Assembly (NCBI GenBank): GCA_001803415.1
Contig: MHDC01000038.1
Coordinates: 1 to 57,625 of the forward strand
Reading direction: 5' to 3'
Source of the DNA: Microgenomates group bacterium RBG_16_45_19
GTDB lineage: Bacteria; Patescibacteriota; Microgenomatia; UBA1400; RBG-16-45-19
Length of the DNA stretch: 57,625 nt
Shown: in pieces, positions 48,001-57,625 of the stretch
How the letters are laid out: each line of letters begins with the position of its first letter
Numbering within the stretch: position 1 is the stretch's first letter
The notes under the pieces: generated by a model
Database searches by the model: none
What the model saw: the letters and a program-made list of their open reading frames with translations, nothing else
What the model was told of the DNA's origin: nothing
Made by a program: the position numbers and the translations under genes

Positions 48001-48453
48001 ATGAAACCCATCAAATCACTTATCCAAACCTACCCTTATCGGACTGTCGCTTTGATTCAGTCACTGATCGCTACCGTCGGTAGTTTATTCCTTAGCCAAG
48101 TTTGGCTCTTAGTCCCCTGTGAACTGTGTTGGTTTCAACGGATCTTTATGTATCCCCTACCATTTATTCTGGGGATCGGTTTGATCAGACGGGAAACTAA
48201 ACTTTATCAATATGTCTTACCCCTCAGTTTGATTGGTCTAACCATCGCCGCCTACCATACCTATCTCTACTATTACGCTAACTATTCTCTCAACGGTGCC
48301 AACGAGACCGTCATGATCGCTTGCAGCGGTGGTGTCTCCTGTACTAATCAACTGATTGAATGGTTTGGGTTTATTACCGTCCCCTTGCTCTCATTTCTTG
48401 CCTTCTCAGTTATCACCCTAGCCATGCTCAAGGAACGCCACGACTCCATCTAA
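48001..48453 (+). CDS. dsbB: Disulfide bond formation protein DsbB/BdbC
   Basis: PCELCWFQRIFMYPL, second Cys pair CSGGVSC, FGFITVP. Confidence 0.92.
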   Translation: MKPIKSLIQTYPYRTVALIQSLIATVGSLFLSQVWLLVPCELCWFQRIFMYPLPFILGIGLIRRETKLYQYVLPLSLIGLTIAAYHTYLYYYANYSLNGANETVMIACSGGVSCTNQLIEWFGFITVPLLSFLAFSVITLAMLKERHDSI

Positions 48454-48470
48454 TCAATAGCTTTCCCTTG

Positions 48471-48571
48471 GTCGCAATTACTGAACGAAGCTCGAACCTT
48501 TATTGAACGAAACTCCGACTGATTGCCGCGCTTTGCGCGGCATAAACTGAACGCTCAGGCGGGCTAAAAGG
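48471..48571 (+). repeat. 101-bp inverted repeat, left copy (att-like arm + GC hairpins)
   Basis: Reverse complement of 53326-53426 with 2 mismatches by manual alignment. Confidence 0.95.
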
Positions 48572-49602
48572 TAAGATAATAATGATTCAGCTCCTTGGTT
48601 TAGGTTGATTCCTTTTTCCTCTAATCCGTCATATACTCCACCTGTATTCTGATCAACCATTCTAGCCCCCAAAATATTTCTCCCATGATACCAATCGAGA
48701 GCTTTTTGGGCCCAATCTAAATATTTTTTTTCTTTGGTAACCGAAAACGCTTCGGTGCAGGCTTCCACCACTGAACCCGCCTCAATCGGTTGTTGCACGA
48801 AAAGAGCTTTTTTGCCGTTTTTTTCAAACCACCCTCGATAACCCGGAAAAGAAAAACAGTCTAATTTTTTGTCATAAATCTGTTCCAGTAATAAATCTAA
48901 AGATTCCTTAGCGATATTCAAATATTTTATATTGCCAAAAACTGAGTAAGCCCAAAACAAAGCCCATGGCAATCTCCCAATATCATATGTAATCTTATCC
49001 TCAAACCATCTCCACGAAATGTCAGAGTTTTTTTCGTAGCTGGTTATTAATTCATCAGATAATATTATTGCCATTTTTTTAAAGTCATATTTACTCATCT
49101 GTCCAATTTTTTTTTTGGAGATTTTAACCTTTATATAATTTTCTAACACCGATCCCAGTTTGGAGCTACACTGATCTCTCACCAATAGACCGTAAATCAA
49201 CCATGCCTTGCTCCTAAGGGATTCTACCTTTTCGATATATTTTACGTACTGATCAAATAAGAACATGCCTGTCAGTTTCTGGTCATCCCTTAACCCCAGT
49301 TTTATAGTATCCGCTAATCCCGCCATTGCCCGGCCAAAATTTTCTCCAATGGACTCATTTTCCCAAACCAAATTCTGATTCAGATCATTCTTATAACTAT
49401 ATTTCCCAGCAGCCGATACTAAAAATTTCAAGTAAATATCAACCAATTTTTCCTCTTTCAATCGAAGTGCCACCTGTAAAGCTCGCGCATTATCATCCAC
49501 GCAGTACCCCTCCCGCAAATCTGGCGTAGCTATCAAACAATGCTCTGCTATCCCGACCATGTCCGTCATCCGATAAAGGTGATCAAGCTTTGGTTTATTC
49601 AT
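48478..49602 (-). CDS. Six-hairpin glycosidase-like protein (the domain often fused to GT4 enzymes); C-terminal tail derived from the repeat
   Basis: GYCVDDNARAL, W.WFED..TYD, QQPIEA, GGVYDGL, NQGAES. Confidence 0.8.
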   Translation of the reverse strand: MNKPKLDHLYRMTDMVGIAEHCLIATPDLREGYCVDDNARALQVALRLKEEKLVDIYLKFLVSAAGKYSYKNDLNQNLVWENESIGENFGRAMAGLADTIKLGLRDDQKLTGMFLFDQYVKYIEKVESLRSKAWLIYGLLVRDQCSSKLGSVLENYIKVKISKKKIGQMSKYDFKKMAIILSDELITSYEKNSDISWRWFEDKITYDIGRLPWALFWAYSVFGNIKYLNIAKESLDLLLEQIYDKKLDCFSFPGYRGWFEKNGKKALFVQQPIEAGSVVEACTEAFSVTKEKKYLDWAQKALDWYHGRNILGARMVDQNTGGVYDGLEEKGINLNQGAESLLSYLLARLSVQFMPRKARQSVGVSFNKGSSFVQ

Positions 49603-50626
49603 GTTTTTCCTTTGCCTTCAAAATTTCTTGATATACTTTTTCATAATTATCTACCATTCGTTCCACCGTAAAGTTTTTATCTACTCTTTCCCTACAATTT
49701 TTCCTGGAAATTAGGTCAATATTTTTCATAGCCCGTTCTGCTTCTTTGAGATTTTTAACAACAAAGCCCGTTTTTCGATCGTCAATTACTTCAGGAATAG
49801 ACCCCAATTCCATTCCGATAACGGGTGTCCCAGTTACCATCGCCTCAATGAGAGTTAAGCCAAATCCTTCGGGGTAGGTGTTTAAATGAAGAAAGCCATA
49901 AGCGTTTTTCAACAGAGCTTTCTTGTCTTCCTCGTCGACTAATCCTACATATTGGATTTTAGAATTTAGATGAGGTTTGATTTCTTTTTCAAAGTATTCT
50001 TTATTTTCTGAAGCGATAAGGCCGGCAATTTTTAGGTTAGCGTTTAGTTTTTTTACCAACTTTATCGCATTATGGACACCTTTATCCGGAGATATTCGAC
50101 CGATAAAACAAAAATAATTATCTGGCTTACCGTTATACGGGTACTCGTTTACCGGAATACCGTGATAAATATTGGCTATATAATTTAAATCCGGTGCGTG
50201 TTTTCGATCGGCATAGCTTATTGAAACATAATGGGTATTTGAATATTTTTTGTAAATTTGGATAACTTGCGGAGAGGAAAAACCGTGGATGGTAGTAACA
50301 ACGGGGGTTTTAACCAGTTTTGAGAAAACAAGCGGGTAAGCATCGTAGTGATTATGGATAATATCGTATTGATCTGAGTCTTCAAAAACCGAAGCCGTAT
50401 GAAGGTATTGATAAACTCTTGGTTCTAAACCGGAGTTTTCCATTATCGGTTTAGGACAGACCCATTTTAACCGGGCAGTAGTTACCGAATCTCCTGTTGC
50501 GTAAAGAGTTACTGTATGGCCGAGTTTCACCATTCCTTCTGCGATACGACTGGCAATTAATTCCCACGGGCCGTATGTAGTCGGAGGAGTTCTCCAATGA
50601 ATTGATGAAAGAATAGCAATTTTCAT
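49595..50626 (-). CDS. Glycosyltransferase family 4
   Basis: PP..YGPWE, GRISPDKG, EGFGLTLIEAM..GTPVI. Confidence 0.93.
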   Translation of the reverse strand: MKIAILSSIHWRTPPTTYGPWELIASRIAEGMVKLGHTVTLYATGDSVTTARLKWVCPKPIMENSGLEPRVYQYLHTASVFEDSDQYDIIHNHYDAYPLVFSKLVKTPVVTTIHGFSSPQVIQIYKKYSNTHYVSISYADRKHAPDLNYIANIYHGIPVNEYPYNGKPDNYFCFIGRISPDKGVHNAIKLVKKLNANLKIAGLIASENKEYFEKEIKPHLNSKIQYVGLVDEEDKKALLKNAYGFLHLNTYPEGFGLTLIEAMVTGTPVIGMELGSIPEVIDDRKTGFVVKNLKEAERAMKNIDLISRKNCRERVDKNFTVERMVDNYEKVYQEILKAKEKHE

Positions 50627-50631
50627 TACGT

Positions 50632-51819
50632 TTATTTTTTTAAAATAGTAATTGTTTTAAAAAGATCGAGGTATCGAAGTCCTATATTTGACCAGGTCAT
50701 TAACCTTCCGTAATCGTACGCTTTTTGGCTAATTTTTTCTTTTTTATCCTGATTTTCCCACAATTCTATTACCGCAGAAGCAATCGAGTCAGCGTCCTGA
50801 AAAGGAACAAGAATACCTCTGGTATTGTTTAGAACCTCCTTCGCATATAAATATGGGGTGGAAATACAACATTTTCCTGCGCCTAGGGCATAAGCAAGCG
50901 CTCCGGAGGCAGCTTGTTGGGGATCAAGATACGGGGAGACATAAAAATCAATGGTTTTTAACCAATCGATTAATTCGTCAAGCGAAAGATATTTGTTAAC
51001 AAATTTGACATTCTTTTCTATTTTTAGTCTTTTTATTTCCTTTTCAAGAAAATTGCGGTATTCTTCGCCGTTAGTTTGTAAAAATACCGGGTGTGTTTGT
51101 CCGATTACTAGATATAAAACATTTGGATAAATTTTGGCGATAGTAGCCACGGCATCTAAAGCATACTCAATTCCTCTCGTTGGAGTTAATAGATTAATAT
51201 TACCAAGAATTATCTTTCCGGTAAGTTGTTTTTTCTCCTTATATGTATCTGTCGGAGCAAATGTAAAATCGGGCGTTCCGTGCGGGATGACTATAATTTT
51301 TTCTCTAGAGGCGCTATATGTATTGACCAATTTCTCCTTAATTTTTTCCATCATAACAACGACAGCATCCGATTTTTTAATTAACCTTTTTAAAATTGCT
51401 CCTTCCCGACTGTTTGGATCATCTAGTACGGTGTGGAGGGTAGTTACTAGCGGTTTTTTTAGCGATTCTACAAAAGGAATAATATATTCACCACATTGAC
51501 TGCCGTACAAGCCATATTCGTGTTGGAGTGAGATAATATCAGTACTCGATTGATTAATGTAGTTAGCTGCTTCAAGATAAGTATGTAACTCCTCTTGTTT
51601 AATTTTGTATTTTACTTCCCACGGGTAATTTATACGCTCTTTTGGCCTTGTGGTGGCCATAATTTCTGCCAAATTATGAGGATTAAGTAAGTTGATCGCG
51701 TTAGTTAAATCTTTTGTATAAGTGGCAATACCACACTTACGGGGTATGTATGAAGAAAGGTAAATAACCCTAATTTCTTTAGACTTTGAAGTTAAAAGTT
51801 TTTCTAAGTTTTTTGTTAT
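50632..51819 (-). CDS. Glycosyltransferase family 4; conserved N-terminus lacks a canonical start (ATA at 51819)
   Basis: Frame is open upstream of the ORF-track start and encodes LSSYIPRKCGIATYT; QHEYGLYG, IPHG, GQTHP, SGALAYA.G, STPY. Confidence 0.85.
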   Translation of the reverse strand: MTKNLEKLLTSKSKEIRVIYLSSYIPRKCGIATYTKDLTNAINLLNPHNLAEIMATTRPKERINYPWEVKYKIKQEELHTYLEAANYINQSSTDIISLQHEYGLYGSQCGEYIIPFVESLKKPLVTTLHTVLDDPNSREGAILKRLIKKSDAVVVMMEKIKEKLVNTYSASREKIIVIPHGTPDFTFAPTDTYKEKKQLTGKIILGNINLLTPTRGIEYALDAVATIAKIYPNVLYLVIGQTHPVFLQTNGEEYRNFLEKEIKRLKIEKNVKFVNKYLSLDELIDWLKTIDFYVSPYLDPQQAASGALAYALGAGKCCISTPYLYAKEVLNNTRGILVPFQDADSIASAVIELWENQDKKEKISQKAYDYGRLMTWSNIGLRYLDLFKTITILKK

Positions 51820-51938
51820 ACTTGAGATCCTTCCTTTACTTGCGTTTCATCTCGTTGAGAAATCAGCCCATAATATACCACTAATCTTCCATTTTGTACA
51901 ATTGTGCCGGTTGGAAAAACTACATTGTTTGTTTGTCC
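51816..51938 (-). pseudogene. C-terminal fragment of a second GH130 gene
   Basis: Manual translation GQTNNVVFPTGTIVQNGRLVVYYG matches the adjacent GH130 GVTNNVVFPTGAVVRDKRLYIYYG. Confidence 0.8.
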
Positions 51939-52951
51939 TATCTTTTCTTGAGCTGCGTCAACAGCTCTGTGAGGTCAACAGATTTAGCGGCGATTAACTT
52001 GTCAGCAGCCCCATAATAAATATAAAGTCTTTTATCTCTTACTACTGCTCCGGTAGGAAAGACAACATTATTTGTAACACCACTTTTTTCCCAAGAAGCC
52101 TTTGGGGAAAACAGAGGTTCTTTTAATCGCCCCAAAACTTTTAGGGGATTTTTGAGATCAAGTAGGGCAGCGGAGGCGTGATAGATTTTTCCAAAAGGAG
52201 AATCCTGCACCGCATGATAGATAATAAGCCATCCGTCTTTTGTTTCGATAGGGGGACAACCACCGCCAATGTTGCGGTTTTCAAACCAAAAAAGAGGATC
52301 AAGTACAATAAAATCACCTAAATTCTTGAAATAATTGCGCCAGCAGTCTTTTGTAAGTTCGGAGAAATTATTAAAGTAAACAATTTGGATTCCGGGTAAT
52401 ATTCGGTGGAGAAGAGCAAATTTATGATTGAATTTTTGGGGAAAGAGGGAGGCGTCTTTTTCAAATAGCAGAATGTCCTTGCCTTCCCTTTCTTTATAGA
52501 GCATTTCGAACATGGTATATATTTCTCTGACTTTTGACTCGCGAAAAATGTCTTCCGCTTCATCGTAAGAGATTTTCGGCGAGATAAGGCCTTGTTTGGC
52601 GAAATGGACAAGATCTTTACTTGTGGCGTAGGCAATAAGAGCATTTTTACCGTAATGGGCAGTATAGAGAAGGTAATATGTTCCTTCTAAAAGAGTAATT
52701 CTGGGATCTTCTACACCTTTTTTCTCATAATCATATTCCTGGGATAAGATTGGCTCTTTAAGTCTTTTTACAACTTTATTATCTTTCAGCTGGCAGTAGC
52801 CTATGGAAGAAACATCATTGCGGTTAATTGCCCGATAAAACATGTGGGTAATGTCATCCACCTGGATGCAGGCAGGGTTTAAAACACCTTTATTTTCGAA
52901 TTCCAGATTTGTTTTTTCTAAAATTATTCCCTCGTTTTTGACTGTAATCAT
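51938..52951 (-). CDS. GH130-family glycoside hydrolase/phosphorylase (DUF377)
   Basis: GVLNP, GVEDPRI, KD..LFP, LLHRI, GG.PPI.T..GWL..YH, NVVFPTG, YYGAAD. Confidence 0.9.
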   Translation of the reverse strand: MITVKNEGIILEKTNLEFENKGVLNPACIQVDDITHMFYRAINRNDVSSIGYCQLKDNKVVKRLKEPILSQEYDYEKKGVEDPRITLLEGTYYLLYTAHYGKNALIAYATSKDLVHFAKQGLISPKISYDEAEDIFRESKVREIYTMFEMLYKEREGKDILLFEKDASLFPQKFNHKFALLHRILPGIQIVYFNNFSELTKDCWRNYFKNLGDFIVLDPLFWFENRNIGGGCPPIETKDGWLIIYHAVQDSPFGKIYHASAALLDLKNPLKVLGRLKEPLFSPKASWEKSGVTNNVVFPTGAVVRDKRLYIYYGAADKLIAAKSVDLTELLTQLKKR

Positions 52952-52980
52952 AATCTTTAATTCCTCAATTGGTTAGACTT

Positions 52981-53208
52981 TTATTTACCCTGTAATTGAT
53001 AACCGGTTAATTCATCCAAACCAACCCCGAGGGCTTTCGCCATTTTCTTTAGCGTATCAAGCGTTGGGTTAATATTCTCGCCCTGCTCAATCTTAATAAT
53101 CGTGTTGTTGGCAACATCGGCGAGCTTGGCGAGACGATCTTGCGAAAGCCCCTTTTTCTCTCGTAGCTTCTTAAGATTTTTTGATAGCGGATATTCTTGC
53201 TTTGACAT
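52981..53208 (-). CDS. XRE-family HTH transcriptional regulator
   Basis: LKKLREKKGLSQ..LA, IE.G...NPTL.TL..MAKALGV. Confidence 0.92.
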   Translation of the reverse strand: MSKQEYPLSKNLKKLREKKGLSQDRLAKLADVANNTIIKIEQGENINPTLDTLKKMAKALGVGLDELTGYQLQGK

Positions 53209-53234
53209 AGTTTATCTACATTAGTACTATTTTA

Positions 53235-53263
53235 ATGATACTATAAAATACATTTTCAGTCAA
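53235..53263 (-). promoter_or_regulatory. Promoter for the XRE-GH130-GT4 unit
   Basis: Minus strand TTGACT-N17-TATCAT; repeated ATAGTA boxes near the start are possible autoregulatory operators. Confidence 0.55.
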
Positions 53264-53325
53264 AATATTCGGGAGCAATGATTTGTTGTGTGCGCACGGA
53301 TGGGCGGCGCAAACACAACCCCCTT

Positions 53326-53426
53326 CCTTTTAGCCCGCCTGAGCGTTCAGTTTATGCCGCGCAAAGCGCGGCAATCAGTCGGAGTTTCGTTCAAAAAAGG
53401 TACGAGCTTCGTTCAGTAATTGCGAC
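53326..53426 (-). repeat. 101-bp inverted repeat, right copy
   Basis: 99/101 identical to the reverse complement of 48471-48571; contains tgccgcgc-aaa-gcgcggca hairpin. Confidence 0.95.
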
Positions 53427-53510
53427 AAAGTTAGAACCGAATTTCGCAATTGTTAGCTCGCTTTGCGAGCAATTATAATCTGATAAAATGATATCAAGAA
53501 TACAACAATT

Positions 53511-54221
53511 ATGAAACTAAATTTTCCTAAATCACCAGCCACCTCTTGGGTTATAAGGACGAAAAATGAAGAAAAATGGTTCGGTAAAGTTTTGGAAACC
53601 CTTTTTATGCAATCTAGGCTTGATTTTGAAGTGATAATCGTAGACTCCGATTCTACAGACAAAACTATCGAAATTACAAAAGACTTTCCGGTTCGAAAGA
53701 TTATTAACGTTTCTGAAAAAGACTTTAATTATAGCTATGCGCTTAATCTTGGAATTAAAGAGTCTTGGGGCGAATACATAGGAATTATTAGCGGCCATTC
53801 GCTTCCTATAAGTCGAACATGGTATCAGGATGGGATGAAGAATTTTGCTGACCCTAAAATGGCAGCAGTGACAGGTTGCTATACGGCATTACCCGATGGT
53901 TCCCTAGATGAGGAACTAGGCGATCTTCATTTTGATCAGAGACGACTGGAAAAAGAGTATTATTGCAAATGGATGACCAACACAAACGTAATTATCAGAA
54001 AGGATTTGTGGAGAAAATACCCATTTGATGAGAGGCTAGAAGAGTGTGAGGACTATGATTGGGCTTGTGAAATGATTGCAAGAGGATGGAATATTGTTAA
54101 AGACCCAAGATTCAACGTTTATCATTCTCATGGCGGGATTGGAAGATCAACTTACAGTGAAAGGGTTCCCACTTGGCAAAGGGTTTGTGCACTTATTGAT
54201 AAAAAGAAAAGACCGAGCTAA
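53511..54221 (+). CDS. Glycosyltransferase family 2
   Basis: VIRTKNEE, EVIIVDSDSTDKT, ALNLGI, PFDE...EDYDW. Confidence 0.9.
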   Translation: MKLNFPKSPATSWVIRTKNEEKWFGKVLETLFMQSRLDFEVIIVDSDSTDKTIEITKDFPVRKIINVSEKDFNYSYALNLGIKESWGEYIGIISGHSLPISRTWYQDGMKNFADPKMAAVTGCYTALPDGSLDEELGDLHFDQRRLEKEYYCKWMTNTNVIIRKDLWRKYPFDERLEECEDYDWACEMIARGWNIVKDPRFNVYHSHGGIGRSTYSERVPTWQRVCALIDKKKRPS

Positions 54222-54240
54222 CCTTCTTGTAGAGGCATAT

Positions 54241-55161
54241 ATGGAAAATCAAATTAATGTTGGTAATCAAAATACCCAGCAAATCGGTCAAAATCCTATT
54301 AACCAAAATGTACAAACTACAGGAAATCCGAAGGTAAAATATTTGGCCTTAGGAATAGTGGTTTTTCTTGGATTTTTACTTTTTGGTCTTGGTGGGTATT
54401 ACTTTGGTAAACAGTCAACAAATTCCTATCAGGATTCAAAAAAAACAGCAAATCAACCTCTCCCCTCTTCGACTACTACTGAAGCTGACGACGCGGCCGA
54501 CTGGAAAGTATATTCAAATGAGAAGTATGGATTTGAAGTAAAATACGATCCTGAATCAAGTCCAACCGAACAAGTTGGAACCGAAGACACTGGTCAATTT
54601 ACATATTTACTATTGGTTAAATTTGGAACAAATCCGTTAAAATTTCCGCATGGCTATACATTAACAGTTAATAAACAAAAATCTTTAGATGACTATCGTA
54701 CGGAGTTAATTGGTCACAGCACTGACAAAATTGATTCAGAAAAAGAAACAACGACCAATGATAGTACTTGGACAAAATTAAATTATCAAATATTTCTGAC
54801 AACAGATTATATTCCTGTTACAACAGCAATTTTAAGCAAATCTGGATATAGTTATACTATAACTGCCAGCATACTAGATATTGACCAAATCCTTTCTACT
54901 TTTAAATTCAGAATAAAATACACTGACCTAAGTGAACTAAAAACTGCGGACGTACTTGTTCAAGATGGGTCGTACTACGGACCACCTTTCGATCCAGATT
55001 TATATCAACTTGAGATCGGACAATCAAATCATCTGTTTGCTAAAAGTGACACAGTAAATCTCAAACAGTATTTAGGTAAGCGTATTAAAGTTAGCTATCG
55101 AGAAATCAAGGGGATAGTAATGGGCGAACAACAATTAGTAATTGTTGAATCTGTTGATTAA
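54241..55161 (+). CDS. Single-TM anchored hypothetical surface protein
   Basis: Q/N-rich N-terminus, TM ending GGYYFGK, WKVYSNEKYGFEVKY, DQILSTFKF; ATG 54241. Confidence 0.75.
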   Translation: MENQINVGNQNTQQIGQNPINQNVQTTGNPKVKYLALGIVVFLGFLLFGLGGYYFGKQSTNSYQDSKKTANQPLPSSTTTEADDAADWKVYSNEKYGFEVKYDPESSPTEQVGTEDTGQFTYLLLVKFGTNPLKFPHGYTLTVNKQKSLDDYRTELIGHSTDKIDSEKETTTNDSTWTKLNYQIFLTTDYIPVTTAILSKSGYSYTITASILDIDQILSTFKFRIKYTDLSELKTADVLVQDGSYYGPPFDPDLYQLEIGQSNHLFAKSDTVNLKQYLGKRIKVSYREIKGIVMGEQQLVIVESVD

Positions 55162-55405
55162 AAGCGATTGCGGAGCAATCGCAAAAATCGCGCGCGCAAA
55201 AAATAATTGCGAAGAATTGGCATTCTTCGCAAAACGTGTCGGTTCGAACTTCTTTTTATCCAATCGGCAGCTCGCGGCCGAATATAAAAAGGGCTTCTCG
55301 GCGCTCCGTGCGGACGGCGGTGCACGGAGCGCCTCCACCCTTCCGGACTCTTTTTCTCTTTTGGTCGGCGTTCCTGGACGAATTGAGGAACGCCTGGTAC
55401 AAACT
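55160..55405 (+). pseudogene. Probable C-terminal remnant of a large serine recombinase gene ending in an att-like site
   Basis: No start/SD; GC-rich hairpin-dense segment reading IAKIARAKNNCEELAFFAKRVGSNFFLSNRQL..., ending (+1 frame) in WSAFLDELRNAW, homologous to the repeat arm. Family assignment from recollection of CPR recombinase tails. Confidence 0.45.
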
Positions 55406-55607: not shown

Positions 55608-56402
55608 ATGAAGAAAAATAAGACAGCAATTGTCACTGGTGGGGCGATGGGCTATAAAACTGGCGGCACTTCTATTGGCGGTGCAATCTCCATAAAACTT
55701 GCGAAAGAAGGCTTCAGCGTAATCGTCGTTGATTTAGGCGAAATGGGACAGAGAACGGTGGACGTTATTAAGAAAAATGGCGGGGACGGAATATTTCTCA
55801 AAGCAGATGTTACCAATACGGAGGAAGTTAATAAAATCATTGACACAATCAAATCAACTTATGGTAGTCTTCATTGTCTTGTAAATTGTGTTGCTCGTTA
55901 TAGCCCTGGTATGGGGAAAAATGTAGCTGACATTTCAGAAGAAGAATGGAATAAAACTCTTGAGGTGAATTTAAACGGGTATTTTAAAATGGCAAAGTAT
56001 TCGATTCCCTTGATGCTTGAATCAGGTGGTGGAACGATTATAAACATATCTTCAATTGAGAGCCAGGTAGTATTACCTAACTTCAGTGTTTATTCTGTCT
56101 CAAAGGCTGCTGTTGACGCATTAACCAGAACTATGGCTGTGGATTTTGCTCCCAAAATACGATCAAATTCTGTTGTGCCTGGCTTCGTAAAGATTGCCAA
56201 CTCAGAGAATAACAGAACCCCAGAACAGCTTGAGAAATGGTATAGCGATATTTCAAAGCAGTATCCAATGAAGCGAGTCTGTGAAGTCGATGAAATTGCA
56301 AATATAGTTGCGTTTCTGGCAAGTGACCAATCTTCTTACATCAACGGACAAGCGATCGTAGTGGACGGGGGCAAGACCATCGCTGACACTCACGAGTTTT
56401 GA
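55608..56402 (+). CDS. Short-chain dehydrogenase/reductase (SDR)
   Basis: TGG...IG, ADVT, INISS, YSVSK catalytic motif, PG, GQAIVVDGG. Confidence 0.93.
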   Translation: MKKNKTAIVTGGAMGYKTGGTSIGGAISIKLAKEGFSVIVVDLGEMGQRTVDVIKKNGGDGIFLKADVTNTEEVNKIIDTIKSTYGSLHCLVNCVARYSPGMGKNVADISEEEWNKTLEVNLNGYFKMAKYSIPLMLESGGGTIINISSIESQVVLPNFSVYSVSKAAVDALTRTMAVDFAPKIRSNSVVPGFVKIANSENNRTPEQLEKWYSDISKQYPMKRVCEVDEIANIVAFLASDQSSYINGQAIVVDGGKTIADTHEF

Positions 56403-56729
56403 TTAAATATTTTATGTCTGATCGGTACCCCGTAAACTAAGACAATCTTCTACGACTCAGCGTTACAATACGGTCGTAAGAAAGGAGTCTTAAATGCAGC
56501 GGAAAATGATCCCCAATTTGGAGATACTCGATACTTTTGTTACTGCATTGTTTGAGTTGAAAAGTTCTAACAAAAAGCCAGTTTTGGCTTCTTGATAGTG
56601 TAATTATTGGCTCTTTTTGATATAATCCGAGTCAGGTTGATATAACCAGCCACTCAAGTTAGAATAATTTGAAACCGCCAGATTGGTTATATCAGTCAGG
56701 CGGTTTGTTATTGAATGGAGGTGAATATT

Positions 56730-57050
56730 ATGGCAGAAGAAAGAGCAGGTTTCCAAAGACCACAGCCAACCCGAGATAACTGGACATCTCGGCTTAGGCA
56801 AGAACACGGTCTTCATACGGATGCATCAATGGAAGAAGTTGAGCAGAAGGCGATCTCTTTATTGGGAAGTCCTCCCACAGCAATTACTGGAGCTGAGTTA
56901 GTTTTAGGTCGTAGGGTAGATGCAGGAGATAAAGAAATTACACCCATAATTGCAACTCCTGGATTAAGTCCCGAAGACAGGTTTAGGCTTCTATTGTTAC
57001 GAAAATCTGTGGAGGATATGCAAGAAGAACAGGGTGGGGAAAAGGGTTAA
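56730..57050 (+). CDS. Hypothetical protein
   Basis: Strong GGAGGTG SD before ATG 56730; directly upstream of the recombinase. Confidence 0.65.
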   Translation: MAEERAGFQRPQPTRDNWTSRLRQEHGLHTDASMEEVEQKAISLLGSPPTAITGAELVLGRRVDAGDKEITPIIATPGLSPEDRFRLLLLRKSVEDMQEEQGGEKG

Positions 57051-57064
57051 GCCCTTGTGTCAAT

Positions 57065-57550
57065 ATGGAAGAAGAGCTTGATATAACCAAACTCAAGTAT
57101 GTTTTGTATGCTCGTAAATCAACCGAAGACGAAACGAGGCAGGTAAAGTCAATTGAAGACCAGATTGAAGAGTGTAAGATTTTTGCCAAAAGAGTCGGAA
57201 TAACTTTCGTTGATATTCTTCAAGAGTCGAAATCCGCCAAACGACCAAATAATCGCCCCATCTTCAGACAAATGCTTGATGACATCAAAGGAGGCAAATA
57301 TGACGGAATTTTATCATGGCACCCTGATAGGCTCTCCCGAAATATGCTTGAAGGCGGTGAAATCATTAACATGATTGACGAAGGGGTTATTCAAGACCTC
57401 AAGTTCGTGACTCACCATTTTACCAACGACGCCAGTGGAAAGATGTTACTCGGAATTGCATTTGTACTCTCGAAAGAGTTTTCGGATAAGCTATCTACTG
57501 ATGTTACGAGAGGAACAAGGAGAAGGCTCAATAACGAGGGCAGGATATGA
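57065..57550 (+). pseudogene. Serine recombinase (resolvase catalytic domain), apparently a truncated large serine recombinase
   Basis: LYARKSTED (catalytic Ser), SIEDQ, ESKSAK...RP.F..M, WHPDRLSRN, helix E LS.DV.RG; stops at EGRI*, where large recombinases continue into the DNA-binding domains. Confidence 0.8.
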
Positions 57551-57625
57551 CCCCCAAAAACTGTACCGGTTCTAGTTCTCAAATCTTCGGTTAAACTTCG
57601 CTCGATTTAATTGGCGTTTTCATCT

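Follow-up and report, generated by a model that had tools for sequence, protein, structure and literature searches.

The serine integrase elements of the phiC31, Bxb1, SCCmec ccr and Tn4451 TnpX types belong to the described systems that come closest to the locus analyzed here, an island in the genome of Microgenomates group bacterium RBG_16_45_19 in which a recurring short sequence, the arm, borders blocks of accessory genes and is linked to genes for large serine recombinases (LSRs). Other known systems also bear on it. In SSV1-type archaeal viruses a tyrosine integrase targets a tRNA gene and has attP within its own gene, which is divided into two large portions; in invertible segments, shufflons and the 2-micron FLP repeats, long near-perfect inverted repeats lie by the gene of a site-specific recombinase. 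The DNA examined (the window) is the entire contig C38, 57,625 nucleotides (nt) long, of a genome of 1.37 Mb in 45 contigs. An earlier note on the window had proposed that arms between 48469 and 55405 are att-like sites at which a serine recombinase repeatedly captured cassettes, building an integron-like array. Serial capture at one locus by serine recombinases is kept here as the best reading, but the integron-like mechanism is not, in view of the tRNA insertion point, the remains of separate LSRs and the inverted orientation of arms. Most probably, three small LSR-borne integrative elements inserted site-specifically, in succession, at the 3' end of a tRNA-Pro(GGG) gene and so formed the island.

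Serine-family integrases are stated not to be known to target tRNA genes in the Islander report (PMC4383910, 2015). Tycheposons lie in tandem and decay at tRNA genes, and 910 of 937 of these elements have a tyrosine recombinase and the rest an LSR, according to the tycheposon preprint (bioRxiv 10.1101/2020.12.28.424599). No published description of the present LSR family in candidate-phyla bacteria was found, supplementary files, which might list such elements, being outside the search.

An island between dsbB and tRNA-Pro(GGG)

The final host gene before the island is dsbB (48001..48453, plus strand; Pfam DsbB, E 7.8e-11). At ~48.5 kb the GC content drops from 0.46-0.52 to 0.35-0.43, and from there to the end of the contig it remains low. 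An empty site after dsbB, which the earlier note had proposed to look for in relatives, is present in genome G003 of the same family. The order there is an ortholog of a gene on contig C25 of our genome (84 % at the amino acid (aa) level), tRNA-Pro(GGG), 14 nt, a convergent dsbB ortholog (69-70 % aa) and then orthologs of the C38 genes upstream of dsbB. With an arrow marking the crossover, the attB junction of G003 reads ..aaaatcTGG↓TCGGGGAGG, the attL junction in the window ..tttcccTTGG↓TCGCAATT, and the attR junction on C25 ..ttaccTAG↓TCGGGGAGG; element and target sites have only ~7 nt in common. It follows from the empty site and the junctions that the island fills the gap between dsbB and the tRNA gene exactly and that arm 1 is its distal border. 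The first arm was therefore placed correctly by the earlier note, exactly at the break between host and island composition. As judged from these sequences, insertion took place at the 3' end of tRNA-Pro(GGG) and not at the arms. The window holds the distal two thirds of the island, which is at least 11 kb long; ARAGORN detected no tRNA and no tRNA fragment in the window.

Arm 1 (48467..48571, plus strand) and arm 2 (53326..53430, minus strand) form a 105-nt inverted repeat, 97 % complementary, with 4754 nt between the copies, and the 1.37-Mb genome contains no further copy. They are thus longer than the ~30 bp described before. A profile ("arm60") built on 68 arm copies from other genomes was run against the whole genome and scored arm 1 (E 1.6e-18), arm 2 (E 7.6e-18) and no further place. 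Arm 1 is an attL-type junction, consisting of host spacer, TTGG↓TCG and then the canonical arm (P'), which is cut off after 105 nt; its placement is based on the inverted repeat, the profile, the family alignment and the comparison with the empty site. In arm 2, an inverted canonical P' arm, homology to the family extends inward beyond 53326 in the alignment. The only read-derived data were Logan contigs, at a depth of ~3-5; one spans the arm 1 junction (48140-48499) and another the junction of arm 2 with a third arm (53387-53739).

This third arm, of another type and designated P'g (53426..53475, plus strand), stands head-to-head with arm 2. A second profile, built on 11 LSR-linked arms of other genomes with window sequence excluded, gave as its top three matches in the window arm 2 (E 0.0077), arm 1 (E 0.018) and 53411-53458 on the plus strand (E 0.022). 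In addition, window positions 53426-53461 are identical at 34 of 36 positions, counted by hand, to the arm beside an LSR gene in genome G117. The more degenerate arm that had been noted at ~53421 on the plus strand is therefore borne out. The GC hairpins with a TTT loop described in the same note are also present, at 48525-48541, 53346-53362 (arm 2) and 53456-53470 (P'g).

The arm and its recombinase gene

The LSR genes of relatives show what the arm is. In 20 of 30 LSR loci, fetched from a set drawn from 61 relatives, the 3' end of the LSR open reading frame (ORF) overlaps an antisense tRNA gene, and 11 tRNA identities are represented (Lys, Glu, Arg, Ile, Gln, Pro, Tyr, Ser, Gly, Trp and Leu). 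In 12 of the 30 loci, the LSR body is flanked on both sides by a repeat of 77-161 nt, the copies being mostly 95-100 % identical. Past the shared 3' tail of the LSR gene, termed X, one copy of the repeat leads into the antisense tRNA, while the other leads into the conserved arm P' and then a GC hairpin. The LSR frame runs in frame from X into the arm in nine of these 12 loci, with the consensus ..[VIL][FY].x.[IVA]RT[FY]F.., and reaches a stop within a few codons; at locus L280 the tail reads ..CLNWSQLLNEARTFFERKSLE and then stops. In all 14 LSR loci with a bracketing repeat, the gene reads into the tRNA.

The same alternation is found in proteins. With the C-terminal portion of the L280 LSR as query, 201 proteins were found at E ≤ 1e-10, of which the best 120 were classified: 29 end in a W-S-x-L-L..RT tail, 75 change right after W-S to a tail encoded by the antisense strand of a tRNA, and 16 are unclassified, many of these ending at or just past the W-S(-G) motif. 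From these comparisons the arm can be identified as the native last ~17 codons, the stop and the GC hairpin of the LSR gene, and the crossover TGG↓TCG lies inside that gene, ~17 codons before the stop. Arm 1 accordingly encodes the final 17 codons of an LSR gene (peptide WSQLLNEARTFIERNSD) and a stop at 48520-48522. That the arm is the tail of an LSR gene explains why similar peptides had been read from the arms, and the earlier view that they are serine-recombinase att sequences overlapping the 3' end of the recombinase gene is supported.

The complete arrangement, which we call State I, is seen at L280 in the order tRNA-Pro(GGG), inverted X, LSR gene, X plus arm, ~8.2 kb of cargo, inverted arm and host DNA; the inverted arm pair there is 339 nt long and 99.7 % identical. 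The genome under study has an LSR gene of its own on contig C1, which runs antisense through tRNA-Lys(CTT) and is bracketed by a perfect 103-nt inverted repeat. Both the C1 and the L280 proteins carry the Resolvase, Recombinase and Zn_ribbon_recom domains. The C1 locus (L030 1506-4370; L023 379-3243) is a complete small State I element, and it also contains a second repeat pair (45 nt, 84 %) around one 176-aa ORF without a Pfam family.

It could be argued that the arms play no part in recombination, being just the decaying ends of pseudogenes or terminator repeats, and that the island results from unrelated events. The arms are indeed 3' ends of recombinase genes with their hairpins, and none of them has an intact partner gene in the window. 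However, all 163 arms of 160 fetched loci share the left boundary T(T/G)G↓TCG and have unrelated DNA upstream of it, this boundary coincides with the attB crossover of the empty site, and over the first ~45 nt there is almost no variation among many lineages of the candidate phyla radiation (CPR). Such an origin thus seems very unlikely.

With regard to RNA structure, the local GC hairpin was missed when 39 arms were folded with RNAalifold, since variant stems misalign; the hairpin is visible by eye, and in L243 and L213 the stem is altered on both sides. An Rfam scan (E ≤ 1) of both arms and of the G040 and G044 copies gave a tRNA in L007 as the only match, leaving the arms without an RNA family. 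The idea that the arm is a tRNA-like 3' half was not borne out on inspection, only a TCGAAC motif being common with the T-loop.

A proposed history of three elements

Three arm types and two LSR lineages (the remnant X1 and the gene at 57065 split by an insertion sequence) lie between dsbB and tRNA-Pro, and the blocks between the arms hold unrelated cargo by Pfam, as described before. According to the proposed mechanism, the LSR gene of the free element would end in the tail W-S-Q-L-L-N-E-A-R-T-F-F..., a stop and a GC hairpin, which together are the arm (P'). Integration would shift this arm to the far end of the element, against host DNA (attL), and would leave the recombinase ORF fused to the antisense tRNA (attR). 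Later insertions at the tRNA, those of elements E1 and E2, would have displaced older elements outward.

The oldest element, E0, would have arm 1 as attL at the dsbB flank, and arm 2 as the second, inverted copy next to the LSR gene, that is, as the LSR-proximal, element-internal copy of the State I layout. Arms 1 and 2 are the inverted pair of this single element and not two successive cassette sites. Its LSR module would since have been deleted, so that arm 2, due to precede inverted X and the LSR gene, instead meets the arm of E1; no integrase remnant of E0 is left in the window. Between arms 1 and 2 lies cargo A (48478..53208, minus strand), five genes which by Pfam encode a 374-aa protein, two GT4 glycosyltransferases, a GH130 phosphorylase and an XRE helix-turn-helix regulator. 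The 374-aa protein has weak C5-epimerase/GH76-like Pfam matches, and its last ~31 residues are encoded by the antisense strand of arm 1 (48478-48571, minus strand). Its native C-terminus was probably replaced by the truncation that shortened arm 1.

A glycosyl operon that runs in one direction, includes its own regulator and is flanked by a 97 % inverted repeat may also call to mind a phase-variable glycan locus, in which a DNA invertase or RecA would act on the 105-nt repeat and, by flipping the 4.75-kb block of glycosyltransferase, GH130 and XRE genes, turn surface glycosylation on or off. The same arm forms inverted brackets in 8 of the 160 fetched loci. However, the same bracket encloses unrelated cargo (serpin, acyltransferase, DNA-modification genes) and is accounted for as split and intact copies of one attachment site. 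Moreover, there is no intact cognate recombinase, the two Resolvase-domain loci of the genome being one specific for tRNA-Lys, with another arm, and one split by an insertion sequence. The flipped order appears in no contig, although the depth is far too low for exclusion. We therefore consider this explanation improbable and retain the E0 attachment pair.

The second element, E1, would run from P'g at 53426, as its left end, through a glycosyltransferase and a surface protein to X1, and would have been inserted later at the tRNA. P'g is without its first ~13-18 nt. Cargo B (53511..55161, plus strand) comprises a GT2 glycosyltransferase (53511-54221) and a 306-aa surface protein without a Pfam family (54241-55161). 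X1 (55163..55365, plus strand) is a ~200-nt 3'-terminal remnant of a lost LSR gene and ends at the crossover TTGG↓TCG (55361-55367). Over positions 55180-55365 the identity to the final ~190 nt of the intact 524-aa LSR gene on C1 is 73 % (E 2e-22), so that recombinase sequence is present at 55160, as the earlier note had it. The match of X1 (55183-55371) to the 3' end of the G117 LSR gene, which abuts tRNA-Pro(CGG), is closer still, 90 % over 189 nt. Since X1 and P'g both match one element of G117, the stretch 53426-55365 can be taken as one former element, E1, whose LSR body has been lost. The order-wide DNA matches of X1, from a search of 286 genomes of its own order, end at or before 55371, with the exception of a tRNA-side match in genome G075, to 55386.

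The youngest element, E2, would consist of arm 3, a short-chain dehydrogenase (SDR) gene, a 111-aa ORF, a second LSR gene (LSR2) split by an IS3-like insertion sequence, and tRNA-Pro. Arm 3 (55365..55400, plus strand) lies directly 3' of X1 and occupies the place that antisense tRNA-Pro has in G117 and G075. From this position, arm 3 would be the P' or distal end of E2. Cargo C (55608..57050, plus strand) contains the SDR gene (55608-56402) and the 111-aa ORF (56715-57050), which has no Pfam family; neither was found beside nine LSR2 homologues. The recombinase sequence reported at 57065 was recovered as the N-terminal fragment of LSR2 (57065..57550, plus strand), a 161-aa ORF with a Resolvase domain (E 1e-21, aa 1-160) that ends 75 nt before the contig end. 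A C-terminal fragment (C25:33674..32571, minus strand; 368 aa) with Recombinase and Zn ribbon domains runs into antisense tRNA-Pro(GGG) at C25:32516-32587. In 9/9 full-length homologues the two fragments correspond to adjoining stretches of a single gene, and eight of the nine homologues overlap an antisense tRNA-Pro. The gene order in G003 is further evidence for a split LSR2 shared by C38 and C25.

Both LSR2 fragments are followed by similar terminal sequences, at the window end and on C25, and a rve-type transposase ORF, its family read from translation motifs only, lies at the C25 end; these features point to the insertion of an IS3-like element. Its left end (57546..57625, plus strand) splits LSR2 and terminates the contig. 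The element spans window 57546-57625 and C25 33641-34372, its ends begin TGA..ACTGTACC, and no further copies were found in the bin.

Site-like arms that divide unrelated gene blocks beside recombinase sequences are also what would be expected of an integron-like platform, on which one resident serine recombinase captures cassettes by recombination between a cassette arm and a resident arm; in other genomes, arms are present as direct repeats 0.3-8 kb apart in seven loci. Here, on the contrary, the empty site and the junctions place the insertion at the tRNA's 3' end, the blocks hold remnants of two LSR lineages and three arm types, and arms 1 and 2 are inverted. The blocks themselves, ~1.7-4.8 kb, multi-gene, with their own regulators and in both orientations, are unlike cassettes. 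There is little chance, in our opinion, that the island was built in this way, and the serial insertion of three elements at the tRNA gene remains the preferred explanation.

Several results weigh against this explanation or parts of it. The C38-C25 join would run through the IS3-like insertion, and no sequence spans it. At the arm 2/P'g junction there is no clean site-specific joint, and with 13-18 nt of P'g gone a deletion must be assumed; the order of insertion and the deletion of the E0 LSR module are likewise proposed from the present arrangement. Arm 3 has no homologue in the 286 genomes of the order (nothing beyond 55386) and was detected by neither profile. Its 19/30 identity to arm 1, for which it had been counted with the recurring arms, is at chance level, being equalled by one other place in the window, with a mean of 1.85 places in 20 shuffles; of that arm family arms 1 and 2 and the arm at 53421 stand, and arm 3 does not on similarity. 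Around the nine LSR2-type homologues (±1.5 kb) no inverted repeat and no canonical arms were seen. The att sites of LSRs were expected by the earlier note to be imperfect palindromes, a property which could not be shown here, dyad symmetry in an ungapped test exceeding that of shuffles in 0/12 attP-like sites, and the half-site wording P and P' used above is borrowed from studied LSRs. Finally, joints of excision, circle formation or inversion were absent from the Logan contigs, at a depth too low to judge. A pairing by eye of the LSR2 tail with arm 1 or arm 3 was dropped after the dyad-symmetry result.

Two loose Logan ends, from other molecules in these samples, have an LSR tail in front of the arm. 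In the genome itself, both recombinases of the island are broken and the sole intact LSR belongs to the tRNA-Lys element, with another arm, which makes it most likely that the array, today a decayed relic, is immobile.

Wider occurrence and known systems

Arms were scanned for in the species-representative genome collection (GTDB) and in metagenomes, where counts are lower bounds. The window arm TCGCAATTRCTGAACGNNGCTCGNACC (27 nt) is present in just 4 of the 286 own-order genomes, and the canonical arm in at least 120 GTDB stretches and at least 119 metagenome stretches. Among the matches listed, nearly all named arm records are titled as candidate phyla (Patescibacteria), of many classes. Bins with the titles Gammaproteobacteria, Planctomycetales, Aminicenantes, Omnitrophica or Pacearchaeota contain a few arm-bearing contigs; either candidate-phyla contigs were mis-binned or the element has spread more widely. 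A viral contig collection gave 0 arm matches.

Two arms were found in 16 of the 160 loci, convergent as in the window in eight, direct in seven and divergent in one, and the cargo between them varies by locus (serpins, a BsuBI/PstI-type restriction enzyme, Dam/LexA/GIY-YIG genes, an acyltransferase). Seventeen of the 163 arms are located downstream of a sense tRNA (16 Pro, 1 Gly), at a distance of 25-73 nt, and a hairpin of 13-30 bp forms the spacer in 10 of these 17. The interval from tRNA-Pro to the arm often contains a perfect, AT-rich palindrome of 17-30 bp with a locus-specific sequence (L063, L064, L102, L126, L254, L256, L282 and others). It looks like two inverted copies of the LSR tail, about one half-site long, remaining after loss of the LSR body.

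Further observations concern single loci. In genome G044 both arm copies are at contig ends, the end of C18 and the start of C26, pointing outward; that assembly probably broke at an inverted-arm bracket like that of the window. A 4160-nt metagenome contig (L225) has a perfect 758-nt terminal inverted repeat with an outward LSR N-terminus at both ends and two convergent arms inside, and is either a genuine symmetric element or an assembler fold-back over the repeat. On C14 of the present genome a weak arm-like match (74877-74928; E 0.018, first profile) lies ~1.1 kb from tRNA-Ile(GAT) and may be another relic site. Two convergent LSR genes 1.6 kb apart are found in a complete genome of the same order (G009:C1 394750-399263).

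As for the second, inverted whole-site copy, it might provide a circular form with two inverted sites, serve a flip that restores the tail, or take part in autoregulation. More broadly, it is conceivable, although we hold it only tentatively, that the LSR family across candidate phyla combines targeting of tRNA 3' ends, an in-gene crossover and a spare tail in an inverted site upstream into a stochastic on/off switch of mobility worked by flipping or excision, and that arm-bracketed cargo and the tRNA-Pro scars are non-autonomous modules movable in trans. Integration would then strip the enzyme of its native C-terminal tail, a spare being held in the near-perfect inverted copy of the site; flipping of the ~1.45-kb gene segment over the 80-160-nt repeat, or excision, would restore the full-length enzyme; and inverted-arm cargo blocks, such as the glycosyl block, and palindromic scars would keep enough of the site for movement in trans.

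The island offers an explanation of how the small, streamlined genomes of this lineage acquire glycosyltransferases, dehydrogenases, serpins and restriction enzymes, namely by the stacking of compact serine-integrase elements at tRNA genes. The targeting of tRNA genes by 20 of 30 LSR loci in one order contrasts with the statement in the Islander report (PMC4383910). The LSR family has two unusual traits, namely the in-gene crossover that swaps the C-terminus and, recurrently in many members, the double inverted-repeat layout. Integrases that recognise conserved tRNA ends may be of interest as landing-pad tools, and the nearly invariant 27-45 nt of the arm are a practical marker for island borders and assembly breaks in these genomes.

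Compared with known LSR integrative elements, the present ones are alike in the Resolvase, Recombinase and Zn_ribbon_recom set, in the position of the gene at the element end, and in precise insertion between attL and attR with an empty attB in the relative G003. They differ in that this family targets the 3' ends of tRNAs of 11 amino-acid identities, in that the crossover lies within the ORF, so that integration swaps the last ~17 residues, and in that many members bear a second, inverted copy of the whole site by the gene. Short LSR att sites have imperfect dyad symmetry around a 2-bp crossover; here the crossover is narrowed to TGG↓TCG, and no dyad symmetry above that of shuffles was detectable at the 12 attP-like sites. 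The integrase ORF is altered at a tRNA target here as in SSV1; whereas the SSV1 gene is partitioned into large parts, only the last ~17 codons are exchanged here. As in invertible segments, shufflons and the FLP system, near-perfect inverted repeats bracket a segment beside a recombinase gene; unlike in those systems, the repeats are explained here as split and intact att copies, and inversion joints were not seen at the Logan depth.

With integrons the array shares the division of unrelated accessory genes by recombination-site sequences. There is here no IntI, attI or attC, and no tyrosine recombinase (PF00589) in the window, matches being confined to C28, C8, C39, C4 and C22; the units are multi-gene former elements with their own recombinases, and the insertion point is a tRNA. 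Integron cassettes are single-gene, mostly promoterless and of one orientation, with direct attC sites, whereas the blocks here measure 1.7-4.8 kb, lie in both orientations and include one with an XRE regulator.

In architecture the island resembles the arrays of the Islander and tycheposon reports. In both cases integration is at the tRNA 3' end, which the element restores, the accessory cargo is small, newcomers push older elements away from the tRNA, the older ones lose their integrase, and several elements sit at one tRNA with their own end markers and an integrase or remnant (E0 being without a remnant). In contrast to those arrays, which are overwhelmingly driven by tyrosine integrases, the integrases here are of the serine family, the displaced marker is the integrase's own 3' end and not a tRNA fragment, and no replication module is present. 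Taken together, the array works like the tandem accretion of islands at a tRNA site, carried out by serine integrases with an unusual site layout, and it is not an integron.

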